Part shown: piece by piece, positions 29,429 through 39,186 of the stretch
Position numbering within the stretch: position 1 is the stretch's first letter
How the letters are laid out: each line of letters starts with the position of its first letter
From: a virus
IMG/VR virus record: IMGVR_UViG_3300028377_000005
Location: 32,001 to 96,000 of that record
Direction: 5' to 3' (one strand)
DNA: 64,000 nt
The notes under the pieces: generated by a model
Told to the model about the DNA's origin: nothing
The model's input: the letters and a program-made list of their open reading frames with translations, nothing else
The model's database searches: none
Made by a program: the position numbers and the translations under genes

Positions 29429-30709
29429 TTATTCTGACTGCTCTTTTGCTTTTTGTTTCGCGTCGAGGATTTCACCCTTGATGCCACTGTACAACTCATG
29501 TTGCCACATGACGTCGAAGAGGATCACACTTTCACTGTTATAACAATTCATTATCAATGCAAAGTCCGCTCTAGTATACTGATCTTTAGCGTACAAAGCA
29601 AGGGCCTTTTGTTCCTCTGAAGGGTCCACGGGATGTACCTCTTCGAGGCATTCGGCCAACATGTCACGCACCTCATCCGCACGGGAACGACATTTCGCAA
29701 GCCAATCTAGGTATTGCGTGTGGTACTTTTTGTAGTACTCCAGCGTTTCCTCAGACGTCGAACCCTCGTCGATCAAGTAGGTCTTGAGGGCTTCCCATTT
29801 TTCGAACTCAGGCTTGCCGAAACATATTTTGGTGACAGTTTTAATCGAACAACTGTACCGGAGCGCGAACTCCCACCGCCACCGTTCTGTTTTAGCCTTG
29901 ACCCGGTGAACGATACGCCCGTCCTTTTCGAAGCAGATCACACCCCCTTCCGGCAACCAATCAGCATCCTCTAGGCCCAACACTGTTTCCACCGCCTCCG
30001 CCAGTGTTGTATTCTTGGCAAGGTATTCCACCGGCTTACAGTTGTTATCCTCGGCCCACTCCATCACGCGGTCGTTGGTCCAATACGTGTGGGTGTCCAA
30101 GTCAAACACCGAAAGCACAATCAGATCTTCTCGGTCCCCATATTTAGTGACGCCCGATTCGCATTCCGGGTGCAGAGCTTCACAAACGATGGTTTTACCG
30201 CGAATCACCTCGGGATCGAGCAACGCGGGGTACTGGTCCTCAGCGATGCGTCGAATAGCCCCGACATAATCGAAATCCGCGCCGTGGACATTGATATCCA
30301 CACCTTCGAGCATACTACGGGTCGATACGTAAACCTCACCGTCGTACTCGAAGATTTGCGCCATGTAACCGTCGTCTTTGAACGGCAAACTTACGCGCAG
30401 CGCTTCATCTTGCGCAAGGGCATGGGTTACCTCGTCGACCTTACCCTTTTCGCCGTGGTTGTAAATCTTGAGCAAGGGCAACGACACCACCTCATAAGGA
30501 TCACGTCGGTAAACGATGCCCTTGGCGTAAAGCTGGTGCTCCCATTCCGGCGTGAACAGGATGCTGGAAGCATTCGCAATCACAAGCCCATTGTCGTGAT
30601 CTCGCTGGTTAAGCATTTCATCGCCGTCGATAAGCGACAAGACCTCCTCCGGGTTGTCCCGGAGCTTACCCAAGAGGTAATCGATATGTACGTTCGTTAC
30701 AGCTTTCAT
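29429..30709 (-). CDS. T4 Rnl1-like RNA ligase
   Basis: KIYNHGE, motif I KDDG, STR, EGGVI, RVKAKT; start set at ATG 30709 (ATGA overlap). Confidence 0.85.
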   Translation of the reverse strand: MKAVTNVHIDYLLGKLRDNPEEVLSLIDGDEMLNQRDHDNGLVIANASSILFTPEWEHQLYAKGIVYRRDPYEVVSLPLLKIYNHGEKGKVDEVTHALAQDEALRVSLPFKDDGYMAQIFEYDGEVYVSTRSMLEGVDINVHGADFDYVGAIRRIAEDQYPALLDPEVIRGKTIVCEALHPECESGVTKYGDREDLIVLSVFDLDTHTYWTNDRVMEWAEDNNCKPVEYLAKNTTLAEAVETVLGLEDADWLPEGGVICFEKDGRIVHRVKAKTERWRWEFALRYSCSIKTVTKICFGKPEFEKWEALKTYLIDEGSTSEETLEYYKKYHTQYLDWLAKCRSRADEVRDMLAECLEEVHPVDPSEEQKALALYAKDQYTRADFALIMNCYNSESVILFDVMWQHELYSGIKGEILDAKQKAKEQSE

Positions 30710-30969
30710 GCTATTTTCTCCGCCACCCATATCAAGGGGTGGTAAATCCACAACACAGTATCATTGATGCGGTCGAATATGCCCTCTCTCAAATCCCACA
30801 TGTGGTAGATTGCACCCACGAAAATGAGGGGCAACGTGACCGGCAGCACTAACAGGCAATAGGCCGCCAGTGCAAGGAGCCCAATCACATAAACAAAGGG
30901 CGTAAGCGTAAGCAGCACAACCGCCAGTGCCTTTTTCCAGAGGGGTGAACGATTAATGGCTATCCGCAT
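30706..30969 (-). CDS. Small membrane protein
   Basis: Long hydrophobic stretch; overlaps both neighbours. Confidence 0.6.
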   Translation of the reverse strand: MRIAINRSPLWKKALAVVLLTLTPFVYVIGLLALAAYCLLVLPVTLPLIFVGAIYHMWDLREGIFDRINDTVLWIYHPLIWVAEKIA

Positions 30970-31660
30970 AGTATACCTCTTTCGCTTCCACCTGTACCAC
31001 TTCCCGCTCAGGCCACCTCAGAGCCGCCAAGGTGTTTCCCTTGACGCAAGACGTATCCACGCAACAGTAGTGCTCATGAACGGTCGGGTCGTCCATCCAG
31101 TAGTGTCCAAAGACAACAAACTCGGGGCCTTCGTAATCCCTCCACCATTCGATTCGGGAATTATCCGGGCCGCCACGGAGGCCGTACATACGCAATTTGG
31201 CCTTGCCATTGAACGCATGGACAGCAACGGCTTCACCACCGTCCAGTTCGATCTTGGTAGGCACTTCCTCTAAGAGGAATTCACCTAGCTCGGTTCTGGG
31301 GCTATCGAACGGCCACCCTTGCTCAAGCTCGGAAACCGTTTTCTGTAACCCGTGTGCGATGGAAACGGGGTTGCCTTTCATCCATCGGAACAGCTTGTTG
31401 TCGTGGTTGCCTTGCACCCACAGGGCTTTGCCCGCTATCCAATGGAAATAGGCAAACTGCAGGGCGAGGCTGTTATAATACCCACGATCTGTGATATCCC
31501 CCACCAGCACAAGCATCCGCCCTTCGGGGTGTTCGTACAGGCCATCTTCACCCATAACGTAACCGAGCTTTTCAACGAGTGCGATTAGTTCGTAGTAACA
31601 CCCGTGGACGTCGCCTACGGCGTCGAAGTGGGTAACGTGTTTTGCGTCGAGTGTCGTCAT
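30953..31660 (-). CDS. Calcineurin-like metallophosphoesterase, Pnkp/PrpE phosphatase type
   Basis: GDVHG, GDITDRG, GNHD, FGH, DTSCVKGNTLAALRWPERE. Confidence 0.9.
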   Translation of the reverse strand: MTTLDAKHVTHFDAVGDVHGCYYELIALVEKLGYVMGEDGLYEHPEGRMLVLVGDITDRGYYNSLALQFAYFHWIAGKALWVQGNHDNKLFRWMKGNPVSIAHGLQKTVSELEQGWPFDSPRTELGEFLLEEVPTKIELDGGEAVAVHAFNGKAKLRMYGLRGGPDNSRIEWWRDYEGPEFVVFGHYWMDDPTVHEHYCCVDTSCVKGNTLAALRWPEREVVQVEAKEVYYADSH

Positions 31661-31743: not shown

Positions 31744-32127
31744 ATGAAAGACCTTAAAGATCGTCTCATCAAGCTCGGCAAGGTGCGTAAGGATTTGCGC
31801 CCCCACCTTCGGCCTGTTTTGGCGGAGTTAAAAAAGCAAGCTGCGTCGGTGCGGGTGCCGGTCACTATGTCTCAGACCTTCCGTCAGATGGAGTGGGAAT
31901 ACATGCACGAGCTTGGGCAGGTGATCATGGCCGAGTTCAACAAACAGGTATCCCGTGAGTCGCAACTCCACAACATCGAGCCTGCTATGGATTCCCGGTT
32001 CGGAAATGGTTTCGAGATCACCTACACAACACCTTCGGGTGGTAAGCATTCCACGAAAGTGAAATACGGTTCGAAAGACACTCTGAAAGATTTCGTAGGC
32101 TATCTCGTTGATGAGTTTGGTGACTGA
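31744..32127 (+). CDS. Hypothetical protein with shared N-terminal leader
   Basis: N-terminus MKDLKDRLIKLGKVRKDLRPHLRPVL nearly identical to next ORF. Confidence 0.75.
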   Translation: MKDLKDRLIKLGKVRKDLRPHLRPVLAELKKQAASVRVPVTMSQTFRQMEWEYMHELGQVIMAEFNKQVSRESQLHNIEPAMDSRFGNGFEITYTTPSGGKHSTKVKYGSKDTLKDFVGYLVDEFGD

Positions 32128-32162: not shown

Positions 32163-32510
32163 ATGAGCAACCTAAAAGACCAACTGATTAAACTAGGCGC
32201 TAAGAACAAGAGCCTTCGTCCACATATACGTCCTGTGCTAAAGCAGATCACAGGTAAGGAAGCCGCAGGGTACAGTGTCACCGACTTTGACGACGTGCCC
32301 GGCCAACTGGCCCACGCCTTTCAGAAAGCCGAGTACGCTAAAGCCAACCTTGAGGGCGAACTAAATAAGCTGATCAAAGGTATGGAAGCTGGCGAAGATC
32401 CTCGCCGCCTCAGCCGCCGTGTTCAGCAAGCTAAAGGCCAGTCGGGTGATCTAAAGGCCGCCGCTACTTCCCTTCACAGTATGCTTGAAGACCTACAGCG
32501 AAGCCTGTAA
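32163..32510 (+). CDS. Hypothetical helical protein with shared N-terminal leader
   Basis: N-terminus MSNLKDQLIKLGAKNKSLRPHIRPVL. Confidence 0.75.
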   Translation: MSNLKDQLIKLGAKNKSLRPHIRPVLKQITGKEAAGYSVTDFDDVPGQLAHAFQKAEYAKANLEGELNKLIKGMEAGEDPRRLSRRVQQAKGQSGDLKAAATSLHSMLEDLQRSL

Positions 32511-32541: not shown

Positions 32542-33549
32542 ATGGCTGAAACCAAATACAAAAATAAGCGGGAGACCGATGAGGGTACCACTGTGTATGA
32601 GTACTCCGACAAACAGGTCCAACACCGCAACCGTGAGAAAGCCAAGAAAGTCGAGCAATTAAGCAAGAAGATTGACGACCTCCGCAAACAGGTCAAAAAA
32701 GATCTCGCCAGCGACGACAGCGTAACGAAGCTCAAGGCCCTTGCTGTAGCCTTGATGGACCAGACCTATGAGCGTATCGGAAACGAAAATTCAGCCGAAG
32801 AGCGCGGGCATCACGGGGTCACGGTGTGGCGCAAAAAACACGTCAAGTTCAACGGCAATAAGGCCACGATCAAATACACCGGTAAGTCAGGTGTAGATCA
32901 CACCAAAACCGTGGACGACCCGAAAGTGGTCAAGGTCCTGAAAGAATTTACGAAAGACAAGAGCGGTGACGATTTCGTTTTCGACTGTGGGGATGAAGAC
33001 GACACTTGCGTTCGCGCAAAAGACGTCAACGATTACCTATCCAAGTTCGATACCACTGCGAAAGATATCCGGGGATACCACGCCAACCGCCTGATGCAAG
33101 AGACACTCAAAGATCTCCGCAAAAAGGGCAAGAAGTTACCCGATGATAAGAAAAAACGGGAAGAGTTGCTTAAAGAGGAATTCGATAAAGCACTGGAGAT
33201 CGTCGCCGGTGAAGTGGGCCACGAGGCCGCTACATTGAAAAGCAACTACCTTGTACCTGCCCTTGAGGACACGTACATGGATGGAGGCAAAGTGATCGAC
33301 AAGCTAGATAAAAAGAAATCCGCCGCTATGAAAACAGCGCGCAACTTAACCCTAGCCCGTTACGTAGCACAGCGCTATATGCGCAAATCCCGCACATCAA
33401 CACGTAACCTTAACGAACTCTTGGACGCCAATCAGGTGTACATGGGGCCGTTGGACGAGGGGATGGTCGAAGCGATGGATGCAGCGGGTGTCGACGAAAG
33501 CATTTTGTCGCTGATGCGTGATAGGATCAACGACCGGAACGGCAATTAA
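32542..33549 (+). CDS. DNA topoisomerase IB (poxvirus/bacterial type)
   Basis: Catalytic pentad R (RIGN), K (GKSG), R (KDIRGYHAN), H and Y nine residues apart (GHEAATLKSNY). Confidence 0.9.
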   Translation: MAETKYKNKRETDEGTTVYEYSDKQVQHRNREKAKKVEQLSKKIDDLRKQVKKDLASDDSVTKLKALAVALMDQTYERIGNENSAEERGHHGVTVWRKKHVKFNGNKATIKYTGKSGVDHTKTVDDPKVVKVLKEFTKDKSGDDFVFDCGDEDDTCVRAKDVNDYLSKFDTTAKDIRGYHANRLMQETLKDLRKKGKKLPDDKKKREELLKEEFDKALEIVAGEVGHEAATLKSNYLVPALEDTYMDGGKVIDKLDKKKSAAMKTARNLTLARYVAQRYMRKSRTSTRNLNELLDANQVYMGPLDEGMVEAMDAAGVDESILSLMRDRINDRNGN

Positions 33550-33558
33550 GATCCGTTT

Positions 33559-33681
33559 TCATCCCCTACAGAAAGGGGGGTTGCCGCATCCGGGTCCGGG
33601 ACATGAACAAGGACCAGAACCCGCCTGAATCAACTGGCTGAGTTTGCCTAATCGCTTGAGCTTCGGCGGCGTGTATTTCAT
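33559..33681 (-). CDS. RiPP-precursor-like peptide, 40 aa (not in ORF track)
   Basis: MKYTPPKLKRLGKLSQLIQAGSGPCSCPGPGCGNPPFCRG; YxxPxLxxxG leader; start overlaps upstream stop (TAATG). Confidence 0.7.
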   Translation of the reverse strand: MKYTPPKLKRLGKLSQLIQAGSGPCSCPGPGCGNPPFCRG

Positions 33682-33941
33682 TAGTGGTCCTTTTCGAAAA
33701 CGAAATGCTGGTCGCTATCGTAAGGATCATCGAACTCCTTATAGACTTGCAGCCGTGTCGCATTCAGGATGCGCTTGACTTCGGCGATTTCCTCAGCCGT
33801 TACAACGATCCGATTGGAGACATGGACCTTCAGTTGGTGTCCCGTCTCTTTACCCAAATGCTCGATCTTGATACGGTTGTCAAACAGGTTTTCGAGTTCG
33901 CCTTGAATCCGCTCGAATGCTTCGTCCCGTGATTCAGTCAT
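33681..33941 (-). CDS. Hypothetical protein
   Basis: 86 aa, coupled to both neighbours, AGGA RBS. Confidence 0.7.
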   Translation of the reverse strand: MTESRDEAFERIQGELENLFDNRIKIEHLGKETGHQLKVHVSNRIVVTAEEIAEVKRILNATRLQVYKEFDDPYDSDQHFVFEKDH

Positions 33942-34470
33942 TGTCCTGCTCCTTGTAGTTGTAAACGACGGTTCGATCCATCCCTGCTACTTCTTCCAGC
34001 ACTAACTTACGCGGCCCTACCTCTTCCCCGTAAACCAAAAGCGTGTTGCGCCTGTTCGGCACATGATGCTTTAGTTCCCGCCAACTGACGTGGATCCAAA
34101 AGTCTATCGGACCACACGCTGACATGTCTGTATTACAGCCCAGATACACTACGGTTGGTGCGTCCTTTACAAGCCCCACCAGACTTCGGAGGTACTGCTG
34201 TGGCCACGATAGGAAAACCACGCCTTCGGTGATAGGCTCCAGATCATGAAAATAGGCTTGCCGGTACTCCAACCGTTTCGGGTGCTTCCGAACAGGTCCA
34301 TCTGTATCTATCGGTGCCGGGTTCCGGTCGATAGCAATGACTTTGGACGCACCCATGTCCCGTAACTGGTATGCCAAGTCGCAAGAGCCAGCCCCCAAGT
34401 CGTAGACAACTTGGTCCTGTACTACATCCCGGAGGACGGCCTCTTGCGCTTCTGTTAGATGACCTTGCAT
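33934..34470 (-). CDS. Class I SAM-dependent methyltransferase
   Basis: VVYDLGAGS motif I, VIAID motif II, FLSWP. Confidence 0.75.
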   Translation of the reverse strand: MQGHLTEAQEAVLRDVVQDQVVYDLGAGSCDLAYQLRDMGASKVIAIDRNPAPIDTDGPVRKHPKRLEYRQAYFHDLEPITEGVVFLSWPQQYLRSLVGLVKDAPTVVYLGCNTDMSACGPIDFWIHVSWRELKHHVPNRRNTLLVYGEEVGPRKLVLEEVAGMDRTVVYNYKEQDND

Positions 34471-34471
34471 G

Positions 34472-35329
34472 TCAGTCCGCTACGGTAGTCCATTCGCTGT
34501 AATAGTCGACGGCTTCGCGAGCCTTACCCCGGATTTCGTCGGCGTCCCATTCCTGTGCCTCTTTGTTTCCCCCGGCCAAATTGTGTACCAGACGGCCCGG
34601 CGATAGTGGTGAAGCATCTTCACCCGCCGACGCCAAAACGGCCACTAGGATATGGGTGCATTCGCTGTTAGCGATACGGTTGTACTCGGGAGGCTCGTCC
34701 TGAACATCGGGGTCGTCGAGGTAAGCGTCCCTCGTGTAGACGACCGCTGAGAGCGACGTGGCAGGTTCCGCAAGTTCCCGACGTAGGAACAAACGCACCT
34801 TCCCCCTGTAACGCCTTACGACGTAATCCTCGGGGTTCTGTGTGTGTTTTCCGACACCAGCACTGACTGCTTCCAGCACTTCCGGCTCAGGGTCGCTGAG
34901 ATTGATAAGGGCTTGCCCCGGAACGCGCTGGTCTTCGAAATCGGTCTGGTTGATACCACGAGCCAAGGCTGCCATGAACCGGTTGGAGTTCGTGACCTTG
35001 GAGCCAATCGTCTCATCGTCGAAAGCCGTGACGATTTCAGCGAGTTCGATCTTGCGGGTGTCGAGTATTTGGATGTCCTGCGTCATAATGTCGTCCTTCA
35101 TATCGAAAATATCTTCCATCAAAACAAGCCAATTGATATCCGGCCAGCCTTTCAGCAACAAGTAAGCGCGGCCCACTTCCCAATCATTCATGCGGTCAGT
35201 GGTGCCACCATCTTGGTAGTAAAAGTACAGGGCCAGATAATGGAGCCACCCTTTGGGCATGTGCGTGGCTCTGCCTTTTTCAAAGGCCCACGCCAAGATC
35301 GCTGCAGAGATGTTTTCCCAGCCGTTCAT
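34472..35329 (-). CDS. Hypothetical protein, C-terminal region DUF3228-like
   Basis: VVYTRDAY...ILVAVLA...PLSPGRLVHNLAGG...EAVDYY resembles DUF3228 by recall; possible internal start at MTQDIQ. Confidence 0.45.
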   Translation of the reverse strand: MNGWENISAAILAWAFEKGRATHMPKGWLHYLALYFYYQDGGTTDRMNDWEVGRAYLLLKGWPDINWLVLMEDIFDMKDDIMTQDIQILDTRKIELAEIVTAFDDETIGSKVTNSNRFMAALARGINQTDFEDQRVPGQALINLSDPEPEVLEAVSAGVGKHTQNPEDYVVRRYRGKVRLFLRRELAEPATSLSAVVYTRDAYLDDPDVQDEPPEYNRIANSECTHILVAVLASAGEDASPLSPGRLVHNLAGGNKEAQEWDADEIRGKAREAVDYYSEWTTVAD

Positions 35330-35637
35330 TCGTTGTCTTCGTCTAGTATGATTTGCCGGAAATCTTCATCGGTCTTATACATGTGAAGGAACCATTTGAA
35401 TTTTTCGCGTGCTTCGTAAGTGCCGGGCAATGCTTGCGTGAAAATCAGGTAATTCCAGTAACTGCCCCACACGAGTAAAACGCTAGCCCAAAAGTACATA
35501 GACCAGTCACCCCCTACCCACAAATCGTGAAGGGGTATAGCTATCATGGCCGCACCGGTGGCCAAGGCAATAGCCTCAAGCAGATAGGTGGCCCGATATA
35601 TGCGACGGTTTTCGATGTATGTGCGGCATTTTTTCAT
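35326..35637 (-). CDS. Membrane protein (2 TM)
   Basis: ATG 35637 overlaps the kinase stop; two hydrophobic segments. Confidence 0.65.
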   Translation of the reverse strand: MKKCRTYIENRRIYRATYLLEAIALATGAAMIAIPLHDLWVGGDWSMYFWASVLLVWGSYWNYLIFTQALPGTYEAREKFKWFLHMYKTDEDFRQIILDEDNE

Positions 35638-36152
35638 CGCAAGATCGTGACGTCGCCGCTTTCGGAATCGTATTCGAAAACGCCCGTCCACTTTTCGGTA
35701 TCGTCGAGGACATTTTGCCGCGCATGGGCGAACCGTGAGGAGTGCTTTTCGATAACCCATTCCGGCACTTTACGGTCCCGGCTGGCGTTCCGCTCTTTAC
35801 ACAGTTCTTCGTCCGCTTTGATTAGGATGGCGTAGGAAGGCAACCCCTTAACCACCGGGCCGTAGTATGCCTTGCGGTTCTGACGCTTGAGGTTGGTCGC
35901 ATCCAGAATGGTCCGTTGTCGGTACTCCGACCGGATCTTTACGATGTCGTAAATCATCTGGAACACGATACCCGTAACCCTTTGTTCCGTTGGGTCGCCA
36001 CTCAAGACGCCCCGGTAATGGTCGGATGATACGATTTCGGTCGGACCATTAGCCAGTTCGCGAGCCAAGGTACTCTTGCCGCTGCCGGATGAACCAATCA
36101 TCACAATGACACAGGGGTCAGCCGTGTATTTTTTCAATTCGCGCAAGTTCAT
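35634..36152 (-). CDS. Polynucleotide kinase (Pnkp kinase / AAA_33 type)
   Basis: GSSGSGKST P-loop, SSDHYR, LDATN, ERNASRDRKVP lid; AGGAGG RBS before ATG 36152. Confidence 0.88.
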   Translation of the reverse strand: MNLRELKKYTADPCVIVMIGSSGSGKSTLARELANGPTEIVSSDHYRGVLSGDPTEQRVTGIVFQMIYDIVKIRSEYRQRTILDATNLKRQNRKAYYGPVVKGLPSYAILIKADEELCKERNASRDRKVPEWVIEKHSSRFAHARQNVLDDTEKWTGVFEYDSESGDVTILR

Positions 36153-36169
36153 GTCTGCCTCCTGTACAT

Positions 36170-36198
36170 TCCATACCATAGCTATCCTGTGCCGTCAA
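36170..36198 (-). promoter_or_regulatory. Sigma70-like promoter
   Basis: TTGACG-N17-TATGGA upstream of the kinase. Confidence 0.5.
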
Positions 36199-38628: not shown

Positions 38629-39186
38629 TTACCTCCACGGTAAATTGCTGCGGTCGGGAGGGCCGATGGGTATGGGTATTTTTTCGTCTTTACCGCGAAC
38701 CAAATAGATAGTGTCGCAGCACCACCCATCAAAGTCTGTGATGCCAGAGGTTTCCCAGCTTTGGGGGAAACCGTCCCTTTTGGCGTAGTAACCTAGCGTC
38801 ATGTGGGGTGTGTAGCCGTACCGCTGCGGAGGCAGCATGTCGACTTTAGATAGGATATCGAGGTAAGTAGCTCGCCAGATATCTAGCCCGGCCCCGTTGA
38901 TCAGGAGCCAATGTACGTACATGTCGGGTGCGTTGAAAAACCCCGTGCCTTCAACCCAAAGCTCGATGGGGTCCATAAGAGAAGCGGTCCTTTTACAGAC
39001 CTGTAACAGTTGCTCCGCTTGTTCATCATCGGTTTGTCCGAGACGAACAAGGGTCATGTGCAAGCCGTTGTTAATCACGTCGTCTTGGGCGTGGTCGTGG
39101 GCGTGGTCCAACACCACCTTGGGTGGGTAGATCGCCAGCATCGTCATCTGATTGGTGATCGTCGGCGCATTGGCTTCAAAGTCCAT
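38629..39186 (-). CDS. 2H phosphoesterase (LigT / 2'-5' RNA ligase superfamily)
   Basis: Two HxT motifs: LHMTL and YTPHMTL. Confidence 0.85.
   Translation of the reverse strand: MDFEANAPTITNQMTMLAIYPPKVVLDHAHDHAQDDVINNGLHMTLVRLGQTDDEQAEQLLQVCKRTASLMDPIELWVEGTGFFNAPDMYVHWLLINGAGLDIWRATYLDILSKVDMLPPQRYGYTPHMTLGYYAKRDGFPQSWETSGITDFDGWCCDTIYLVRGKDEKIPIPIGPPDRSNLPWR

Follow-up and report, generated by a model that had tools for sequence, protein, structure and literature searches.

The peptide gene and its position

The window analyzed in this study is a stretch of 64,000 nucleotides that corresponds to bases 32001-96000 of an IMG/VR record of 115,647 bp (IMGVR_UViG_3300028377_000005), of which the G+C content is 51.6%. 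The completeness of this record was estimated as 25% by CheckV, which implies that the whole phage has a genome of about 460 kb, that is, it is a jumbo phage. We found no tRNA genes in the record that might serve as a clue to the host.

A gene of 40 codons is located at 33559-33681 on the minus strand (stop codon included), and its translation is exactly that written down in an earlier reading of the window made from the letters alone (the sequence-only reading). The product, P0001, consists of a leader-like part (residues 1-19, 33625-33681, minus strand) and a core-like part (residues 20-40, 33562-33624, minus strand). The ATG of the gene has one base in common with the TAA of an 86-codon ORF (33681-33941, minus strand), giving the TAATG overlap on which the claim of translational coupling was based. 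In addition, an AAGGA Shine-Dalgarno sequence can be read at 33688-33692 (minus strand), 6 nt 5' of the ATG. The peptide gene closes a row of genes on the minus strand, with 9 nt between its stop codon and the end of the convergent gene of topoisomerase IB (32542-33549, plus strand; Topoisom_I, E 1e-31). Far upstream, the minus strand has a strong terminator-like hairpin (38616-38590) and, after it, a site resembling a promoter (38574-38547). These two signals suggest a single long minus-strand transcription unit, of which the peptide gene would be the last member.

Two other readings of the region were rejected. A noncoding RNA or a terminator was set aside, as no Rfam family matched and the terminator-like stems were only weak. 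A lipoprotein, a spanin or a secreted peptide was dismissed by eye because a hydrophobic signal segment and a lipobox are absent.

Genes adjacent to the peptide gene

The 86-codon ORF matched no family, and it is missing in the related phage described below, in which two other genes are inserted elsewhere in the row. For these two reasons we rejected the possibility that the ORF is a hidden RRE. As to the proposed coupling within an operon, the start/stop overlap is real, but the ORF to which the peptide gene is coupled is absent in the relative.

The conserved upstream neighbor of the peptide gene encodes a small class I SAM methyltransferase (33934-34470, minus strand), which showed weak methyltransferase matches in Pfam and NCBIfam. 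Its AF2 model (pLDDT 86) was nearest to small RNA methyltransferases and PrmA (PH1948, TrmK, METTL5 and RsmD). The next gene (34472-35086, minus strand) encodes a protein of about 204 aa, counted from a conserved Met. It had been called DUF3228-like, and the fold was confirmed by an AF2 model (pLDDT 94) with which Foldseek retrieved 4fbd and 2pd0 at probability 1.0. These two structures are apicomplexan proteins to which no function is assigned. At least 115 metagenome clusters are homologous to the DUF3228-fold protein, none of them named and many of them on contigs of 100-460 kb, and it appears to be a widespread protein of jumbo phages. We also considered the DUF3228-fold protein or the methyltransferase as the enzyme that modifies the peptide, and rejected this candidate, since the predicted folds gave no support to it.

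In the relative, an extra protein of 175 aa (L003:2205-2732, plus strand) ends with EWTIVAD, and the DUF3228-fold protein just upstream (L003:1630-2226, plus strand) carries EWTTVAD. The rest of the two proteins could not be aligned.

The third gene of the proposed operon encodes a P-loop kinase (35634-36179, minus strand) that resembles polynucleotide kinases (AAA_33, E 2.8e-23; phrog_505 polynucleotide kinase, E 3.5e-15). The idea that the kinase, DUF3228 and methyltransferase genes form a RiPP cluster was not supported. The kinase is polynucleotide-kinase-like, the methyltransferase is closest to small RNA methyltransferases, and the region contains an RNA ligase and phosphoesterases. From the genes it contains, the neighborhood of the peptide looks like one of RNA repair and nucleotide metabolism, not of RiPP genes.

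The RNA-repair-like genes form a dispersed set (29429-31660, 33934-34470, 35634-36179 and 38629-39186, all on the minus strand), which comprises an Rnl1-type RNA ligase, a calcineurin-like metallophosphoesterase, the polynucleotide-kinase-like kinase, the RNA-methyltransferase-like enzyme and a LigT/2H phosphoesterase. Genes of a dCTP deaminase and PhoH are close to them. The identity to the relative is 80% for the calcineurin-like phosphoesterase and 86% for the kinase. On the plus strand, two otherwise unrelated small proteins (31744-32127 and 32163-32510) have in common an N-terminus of about 35 residues, LKDxLIKLG...LRPHxRPVL, of which the LIKLGK faintly echoes the LKRLGK of the peptide. 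In the relative, the homologue of the second of these proteins is split into ORFs of 42 aa and 71 aa.

Conservation of the peptide gene

The sequence-only reading had named lack of conservation as a result that would speak against the peptide. The same gene was found at the same place in a second phage lineage (IMGVR_UViG_3300039190_000120), where it encodes a peptide of 39 aa (P0002), and DNA identical to that of this lineage occurs in two further samples, so that it is represented in three metagenomes altogether. The gene of P0002 is flanked by the methyltransferase gene, the end of which is overlapped by its start by 11 nt, and by the convergent topoisomerase IB gene, in the same arrangement as in the window. 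These are the two independent peptide sequences on which the following comparison is based (n=2); a third phage lineage is known from proteins alone (P0005 and P0120-P0122). The identities of these proteins, 88% for DUF3228 and 59-63% for the methyltransferase, mark them as belonging to closer or sister lineages.

P0001 and P0002 are identical at 31 of 39 residues (about 79-82%). This value is higher than those of the adjacent topoisomerase IB (63%) and methyltransferase (56%). The nucleotide differences between the two genes fall on codon positions 1, 2 and 3 in the numbers 8, 7 and 22, and the values of pS and pN were 0.85 (saturated) and 0.16, respectively. All five other frames of the peptide gene contain stops. 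Furthermore, the similarity between the two peptides starts exactly at Met1, and the in-frame residues upstream of it differ. Taken together, the coding-type substitutions, the closed frames, the boundary at Met1 and the conservation above that of the flanking genes lead us to conclude, from the comparison of the two lineages, that the ORF is a real gene under purifying selection.

We therefore give almost no weight to the view that no gene is present and that an ORF has merely arisen by chance between two convergent genes. It is true that the ORF is short, lies below the usual cut-offs of gene calling and is missing from protein databases. However, the bias of the differences toward third codon positions (22 of 37), the closure of the other frames, and the presence of a ribosome-binding site and a start/stop overlap are at odds with this view, which on such a pattern is already contradicted.

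The leader-like part was identical at 17 of 19 residues, and Y3, P6, L8 and G12, the four residues whose loss in homologues had been named as a refutation, are invariant in both lineages. In the core, the four Cys and the blocks GSGPC, CPG, GCGN and PFC are invariant. Thus leader and core are conserved to about the same extent.

The leader-like part and the lasso register

The RRE recognizes precursors of lasso peptides through a leader motif, Y/W(-17)xxP(-14)x[LVIAFY](-12) (PMC13381572, PMC10368454). When cleavage is assumed to occur after residue 19, the residues Y3, P6, L8, G12 and I18 of the phage peptide take the positions -17, -14, -12, -8 and -2 of a lasso leader. Y3, P6 and L8 thus form the motif. 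At -2, where Thr is usual and Ile or Val is rare, both lineages have Ile18; Y, P, L and I at -17, -14, -12 and -2 are common to the two. The observation that the leader fits the lasso register at these positions was therefore borne out. The Ile in place of the penultimate Thr, which had been listed as a difference from lasso leaders, is indeed present, and it is moreover a published natural variant that was validated experimentally in BsfA (PMC10368454). The net charge of the leader-like part is about +5.

We then asked how much weight the motif can bear. The loose form of the motif is within chance, since 1-4 small ORFs per shuffled genome have it. A stricter form was found at one place in the genome and in none of 20 shuffles, a count to be read with the reservation that this form was defined after the peptide had been seen. 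No curated model of lasso leaders or precursors matched either peptide above its cut-off. NF033521 (lasso_leader_L3) gave 12.8-13.7 bits with the leader of the relative, which is under the cut-off of 19 bits, and this leader was the only six-frame match in that record; the same model did not match P0001, and the lasso model PF19397 was silent on both phage peptides. The nearest named cluster in the ESM Atlas was a lasso leader family with a score of 0.77, which we regard as a lead only.

A profile of the peptide was also searched against 1.84 billion proteins, and the sole match was P0003 (E 4e-4), a metagenome protein of 199 aa. P0003 consists of four tandem units, each of which has a lasso-type YEPPxLxxLGxxxxLT leader followed by SDxRLKxDI. 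The latter motif corresponds to the beginning of the Peptidase_S74 intramolecular chaperone (E 4.7e-8). The matches of P0003, NF033521 and the ESM Atlas cluster are weak independent support for a lasso-type leader.

The core-like part

The core of P0001 is rich in Gly and Pro, and has Cys25, Cys27, Cys32 and Cys38. Neither phage core contains Asp or Glu, so the four-Cys core lacking an acidic residue that had been described in the window is a feature of both lineages. At core positions 7-9, where a lasso core has the Asp or Glu that accepts the ring, the phage core has S-C-P, or C-P-G in an alternative register. Since there is no Asp or Glu in either core, a macrolactam ring cannot form. In addition, the core of the relative begins with Met, an unusual first residue for a lasso core.

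Comparison with class I lasso precursors

We compared the phage peptides with HumA, the precursor of the class I lasso peptide humidimycin (sequence from PMC7168211), which was chosen as comparator after the likeness had been noticed. In BLASTP, P0002 matched HumA with E 1e-8 (15 of 37 residues identical), and P0001 with E 4e-6. The alignment is collinear from the leader Tyr to the last Cys of the core. When the composition was preserved and the sequences were shuffled, the score was reached by 0 of 20,000 shuffles for P0002 and by 1 of 20,000 for P0001, and it also lay beyond the shuffles when leader and core were shuffled separately. The alignment of the leader alone was reached by 0 of 20,000 shuffles for both peptides. 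In contrast, the alignment of the core alone was not significant, being reached by 17% of the shuffles for P0001 and 1.1% for P0002. These alignments indicate that the likeness to HumA stems mainly from the leader. Judged by them, the closest known sequences are the class I precursors, that is, the four-Cys lasso precursors of the siamycin/humidimycin type (humidimycin HumA, aborycin, MS-271/siamycin, specialicin, arcumycin and sviceucin). Among 46 published lasso precursors inspected by eye, a leader starting with YEPP was found in the class I group and in two others.

The phage peptides resemble class I precursors in several respects. The leaders are of the type YEPPxLxx[IL]Gx[FL]xxL[TI]x, with a span of 17 residues from Tyr to the cleavage site. 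The phage core has 20-21 residues and four Cys, and its GCG (positions 12-14) and last Cys (position 19) are at the same positions as in class I. The differences are, however, considerable. The class I core has Cys1, Cys7, Cys13 and Cys19 and an isopeptide bond between Cys1 and Asp9, whereas the Cys of the phage core are at 6, 8, 13 and 19. In place of Cys1 there is Ala or Met, an additional Cys gives rise to a CxC, and Asp9 or any other acidic residue that could close the ring is lacking. The leaders of class I are acidic, whereas the phage leader is strongly basic. The genes of B1, B2, C and the disulfide oxidoreductase are absent near the phage peptide. Moreover, class I has been reported only from Streptomyces (PMC7168211), whereas the peptide gene lies in a phage of 52% G+C.

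Comparison with other lasso-like systems

Lasso precursors with Ile at -2 are known: BsfA of Bradymonas and precursors of Acidobacteriaceae and Sphingomonadales (PMC10368454). Their leaders resemble that of the phage peptide in having Y(-17), P(-14) and L(-12), and also in their natural Ile(-2), a residue of importance in processing by B1 and B2. In contrast to the phage core, which has no acid, their cores begin with Gly1 and cyclize onto Asp8 (PMC10368454). Their clusters contain B1, B2, C and an HprK-like kinase, and the polynucleotide-kinase-like kinase of the phage is not of that type.

In the linear polyphosphorylated peptides (LPP) of Bacillota, a discrete RRE recognizes a lasso-like YxxPx[VL] leader, and the product stays linear because no cyclase acts on it (PMC13381572). 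Unlike the phage leader, the LPP leader runs on as VLxHQxIxFETxxS (PMC13381572). The genes that make up the LPP clusters (RRE, SipW-like peptidase, kinase, NTP transferase and exporter) have no counterpart beside the phage peptide.

Searches for maturation enzymes

The sequence-only reading had stated that no gene of an RRE, peptidase, cyclase or radical SAM enzyme is in the window, and this statement holds for the whole 115-kb record and for its relatives. We searched three records, which are fragments (115 kb, 96 kb and 35 kb) totaling about 247 kb, for PqqD, the Streptomyces-type lasso RRE, lasso B2, Transglut_core3, Asn_synthase, Radical_SAM, YcaO and MbnB/DUF692. PqqD (PF05402), NF033530, NF033537, PF13471 and PF00733 were absent from the record and both relatives. 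Radical SAM (PF04055), YcaO (PF02624) and MbnB/DUF692 (PF05114) were absent from all three records, in which models of thioether RiPP precursors had no match either. Furthermore, a search of 32 other large phages that have the topoisomerase IB, DUF3228 or methyltransferase gene in common with the window gave no PqqD match at the cut-off; 8 of these phages are at least 90% complete.

Searches for further homologues

A word-based homologue search with the peptide gave no match, and tblastn against GenBank phages gave none for the peptide or for its DUF3228 neighbor. When collections of viruses, metagenomes and species genomes were scanned with patterns, no lineage beyond the second emerged; 17 other matches of these scans were rejected as chance matches with internal stops. 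No bacterial relative with this layout of leader plus core was found by pattern scans in 185,579 species genomes. When the profile was run against 401 genomes sampled from a single bacterial phylum, centered on a Solirubrobacterales MAG, the only matches were of low complexity.

We also looked for the peptide beside the homologues of its neighbors. It was not found around topoisomerase IB in 28 records of other large phages, nor at 18 loci with DUF3228 homologues or 11 loci with methyltransferase homologues, and the weak matches seen there were rejected as antisense or low-complexity frames. Thus the search of the leader and its neighbors across phages, which had been proposed as a check, yielded one further lineage with the same synteny, but nothing beside the neighbor-gene homologues of distant phages.

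Short ORFs with basic lasso-type leaders were noticed in bacterial MAGs of Solirubrobacterales and Rokuibacteriota (L071:5272-5346, plus strand; L065:1124-1198, minus strand). An example of such a leader is K-Y-R-K-P-V-L-R-R-L-G, and the stop follows a few codons past it.

Interpretation of the peptide

The best-supported reading, which we consider possible rather than probable, is that the peptide is an orphan, ring-less precursor of the lasso type that docks on an RRE of the host. In an infected cell, Tyr3, Pro6 and Leu8 would hold the leader as an additional beta-strand on a PqqD-like RRE (the lasso B1 domain), and the B2 leader peptidase would accept Ile18 in its -2 pocket. Most likely, these partner enzymes would be supplied by the host. 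Because a carboxylate acceptor is absent, the cyclase would be unable to close the macrolactam ring. Two outcomes can then be imagined. One is the release of a linear peptide of 20-21 residues with four Cys, bridged by disulfides or binding a metal. The other is a dead-end complex that would occupy the lasso enzymes of the host.

This proposal, which we draw from sequence comparison, is strengthened by the status of the ORF as a gene, the register of the leader, the match to HumA and the shuffles, the matches of P0003, NF033521 and the ESM Atlas, and the absence of a maturase on the phage DNA searched. It is weakened by the number of sequences (two), the models below cut-off, the non-significant core alignment, the 25% coverage of the genome, the lack of a bacterial relative, the basic leader and the Met at core position 1.

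A bolder form of the proposal is that jumbo phages carry a disabled lasso precursor as a counter-measure. In this case, the leader would capture the host RRE together with B2 and C, the acid-less core could not be cyclized, and the pathway would be shut down or redirected. We regard this form as unlikely. A metagenome study found a correlation, and only a correlation, between host lasso families and interactions with phages (PMC11118758), which provides a motive for such a decoy but is no proof of it.

The most serious alternative is that the peptide is a small phage protein that acts unmodified. That is, a basic amphipathic N-terminus and a Gly/Pro-rich knuckle of four Cys, held by a metal or by disulfides, would act on a host target, and the likeness to lasso precursors would be convergent or due to chance. 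We think this rather unlikely, although several results would suit it: a maturase was not found on the phage DNA searched, the curated lasso models were below cut-off or silent, the loose motif is common by chance, and the neighborhood is one of RNA repair and nucleotide metabolism. The equal conservation of leader and core also suits it, as opposed to the usual conserved leader and variable core. What argues against it is the full-length collinear match to class I precursors, far above composition-matched shuffles, and the exact lasso register of four key residues. In addition, we know of no familiar zinc-binding site with the spacing CxC-x4-C-x5-C.

It is also conceivable, but distinctly improbable in our estimation, that the peptide is a RiPP precursor belonging to a different class or a new one (for example, thioether, thiazoline or Cys-derived), and that the phage itself encodes the maturing enzymes in the part of its genome (roughly 75%) outside the record. 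Its bipartite build of leader and core and its invariant Cys are compatible with this, as is the completeness of the record, which is only 25%, and RREs are often too diverged to be detected by the Pfam model of PqqD. However, PqqD, radical SAM, YcaO and MNIO were absent from the three fragments (about 247 kb), and PqqD was absent from the 32 other large phages with neighbor genes. Precursors usually adjoin their enzymes, and the neighbors here are unrelated to such a function.

That the peptide is a substrate of the adjacent methyltransferase, as had also been suggested, seems very improbable. The order of methyltransferase and peptide with overlapping stop and start is the sole linkage kept in both lineages, and a micro-ORF containing GPCDCPG precedes one distant methyltransferase homologue. 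Against this, the enzyme resembles small RNA methyltransferases most closely in fold, a peptide of this kind is missing at ten other methyltransferase loci, an unrelated ORF lies between both genes in the window, and the surrounding genes point to RNA repair.

We found no description of phage-borne orphan precursors of the lasso type in the literature. Lasso peptides and other RRE-dependent RiPPs are usually regarded as bacterial products of self-contained clusters. If our favored reading of a host-docking precursor is true, viruses would tap or block RiPP pathways with a 40-codon gene alone, and if the peptide is processed, a natural linear product of lasso machinery with four Cys would result. 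Because standard gene callers miss the gene and protein databases do not contain it, similar genes may be widely overlooked.

The micro-ORF mentioned above (L084:3899-3994, plus strand) has no ATG and ends 1 nt before the distant methyltransferase homologue. Its GPCDCPG is the sole other occurrence of GPC.CPG in all the loci compared (1.77 million residues in six-frame translation). The micro-ORF has no leader, and it may be a remnant or a product of chance.
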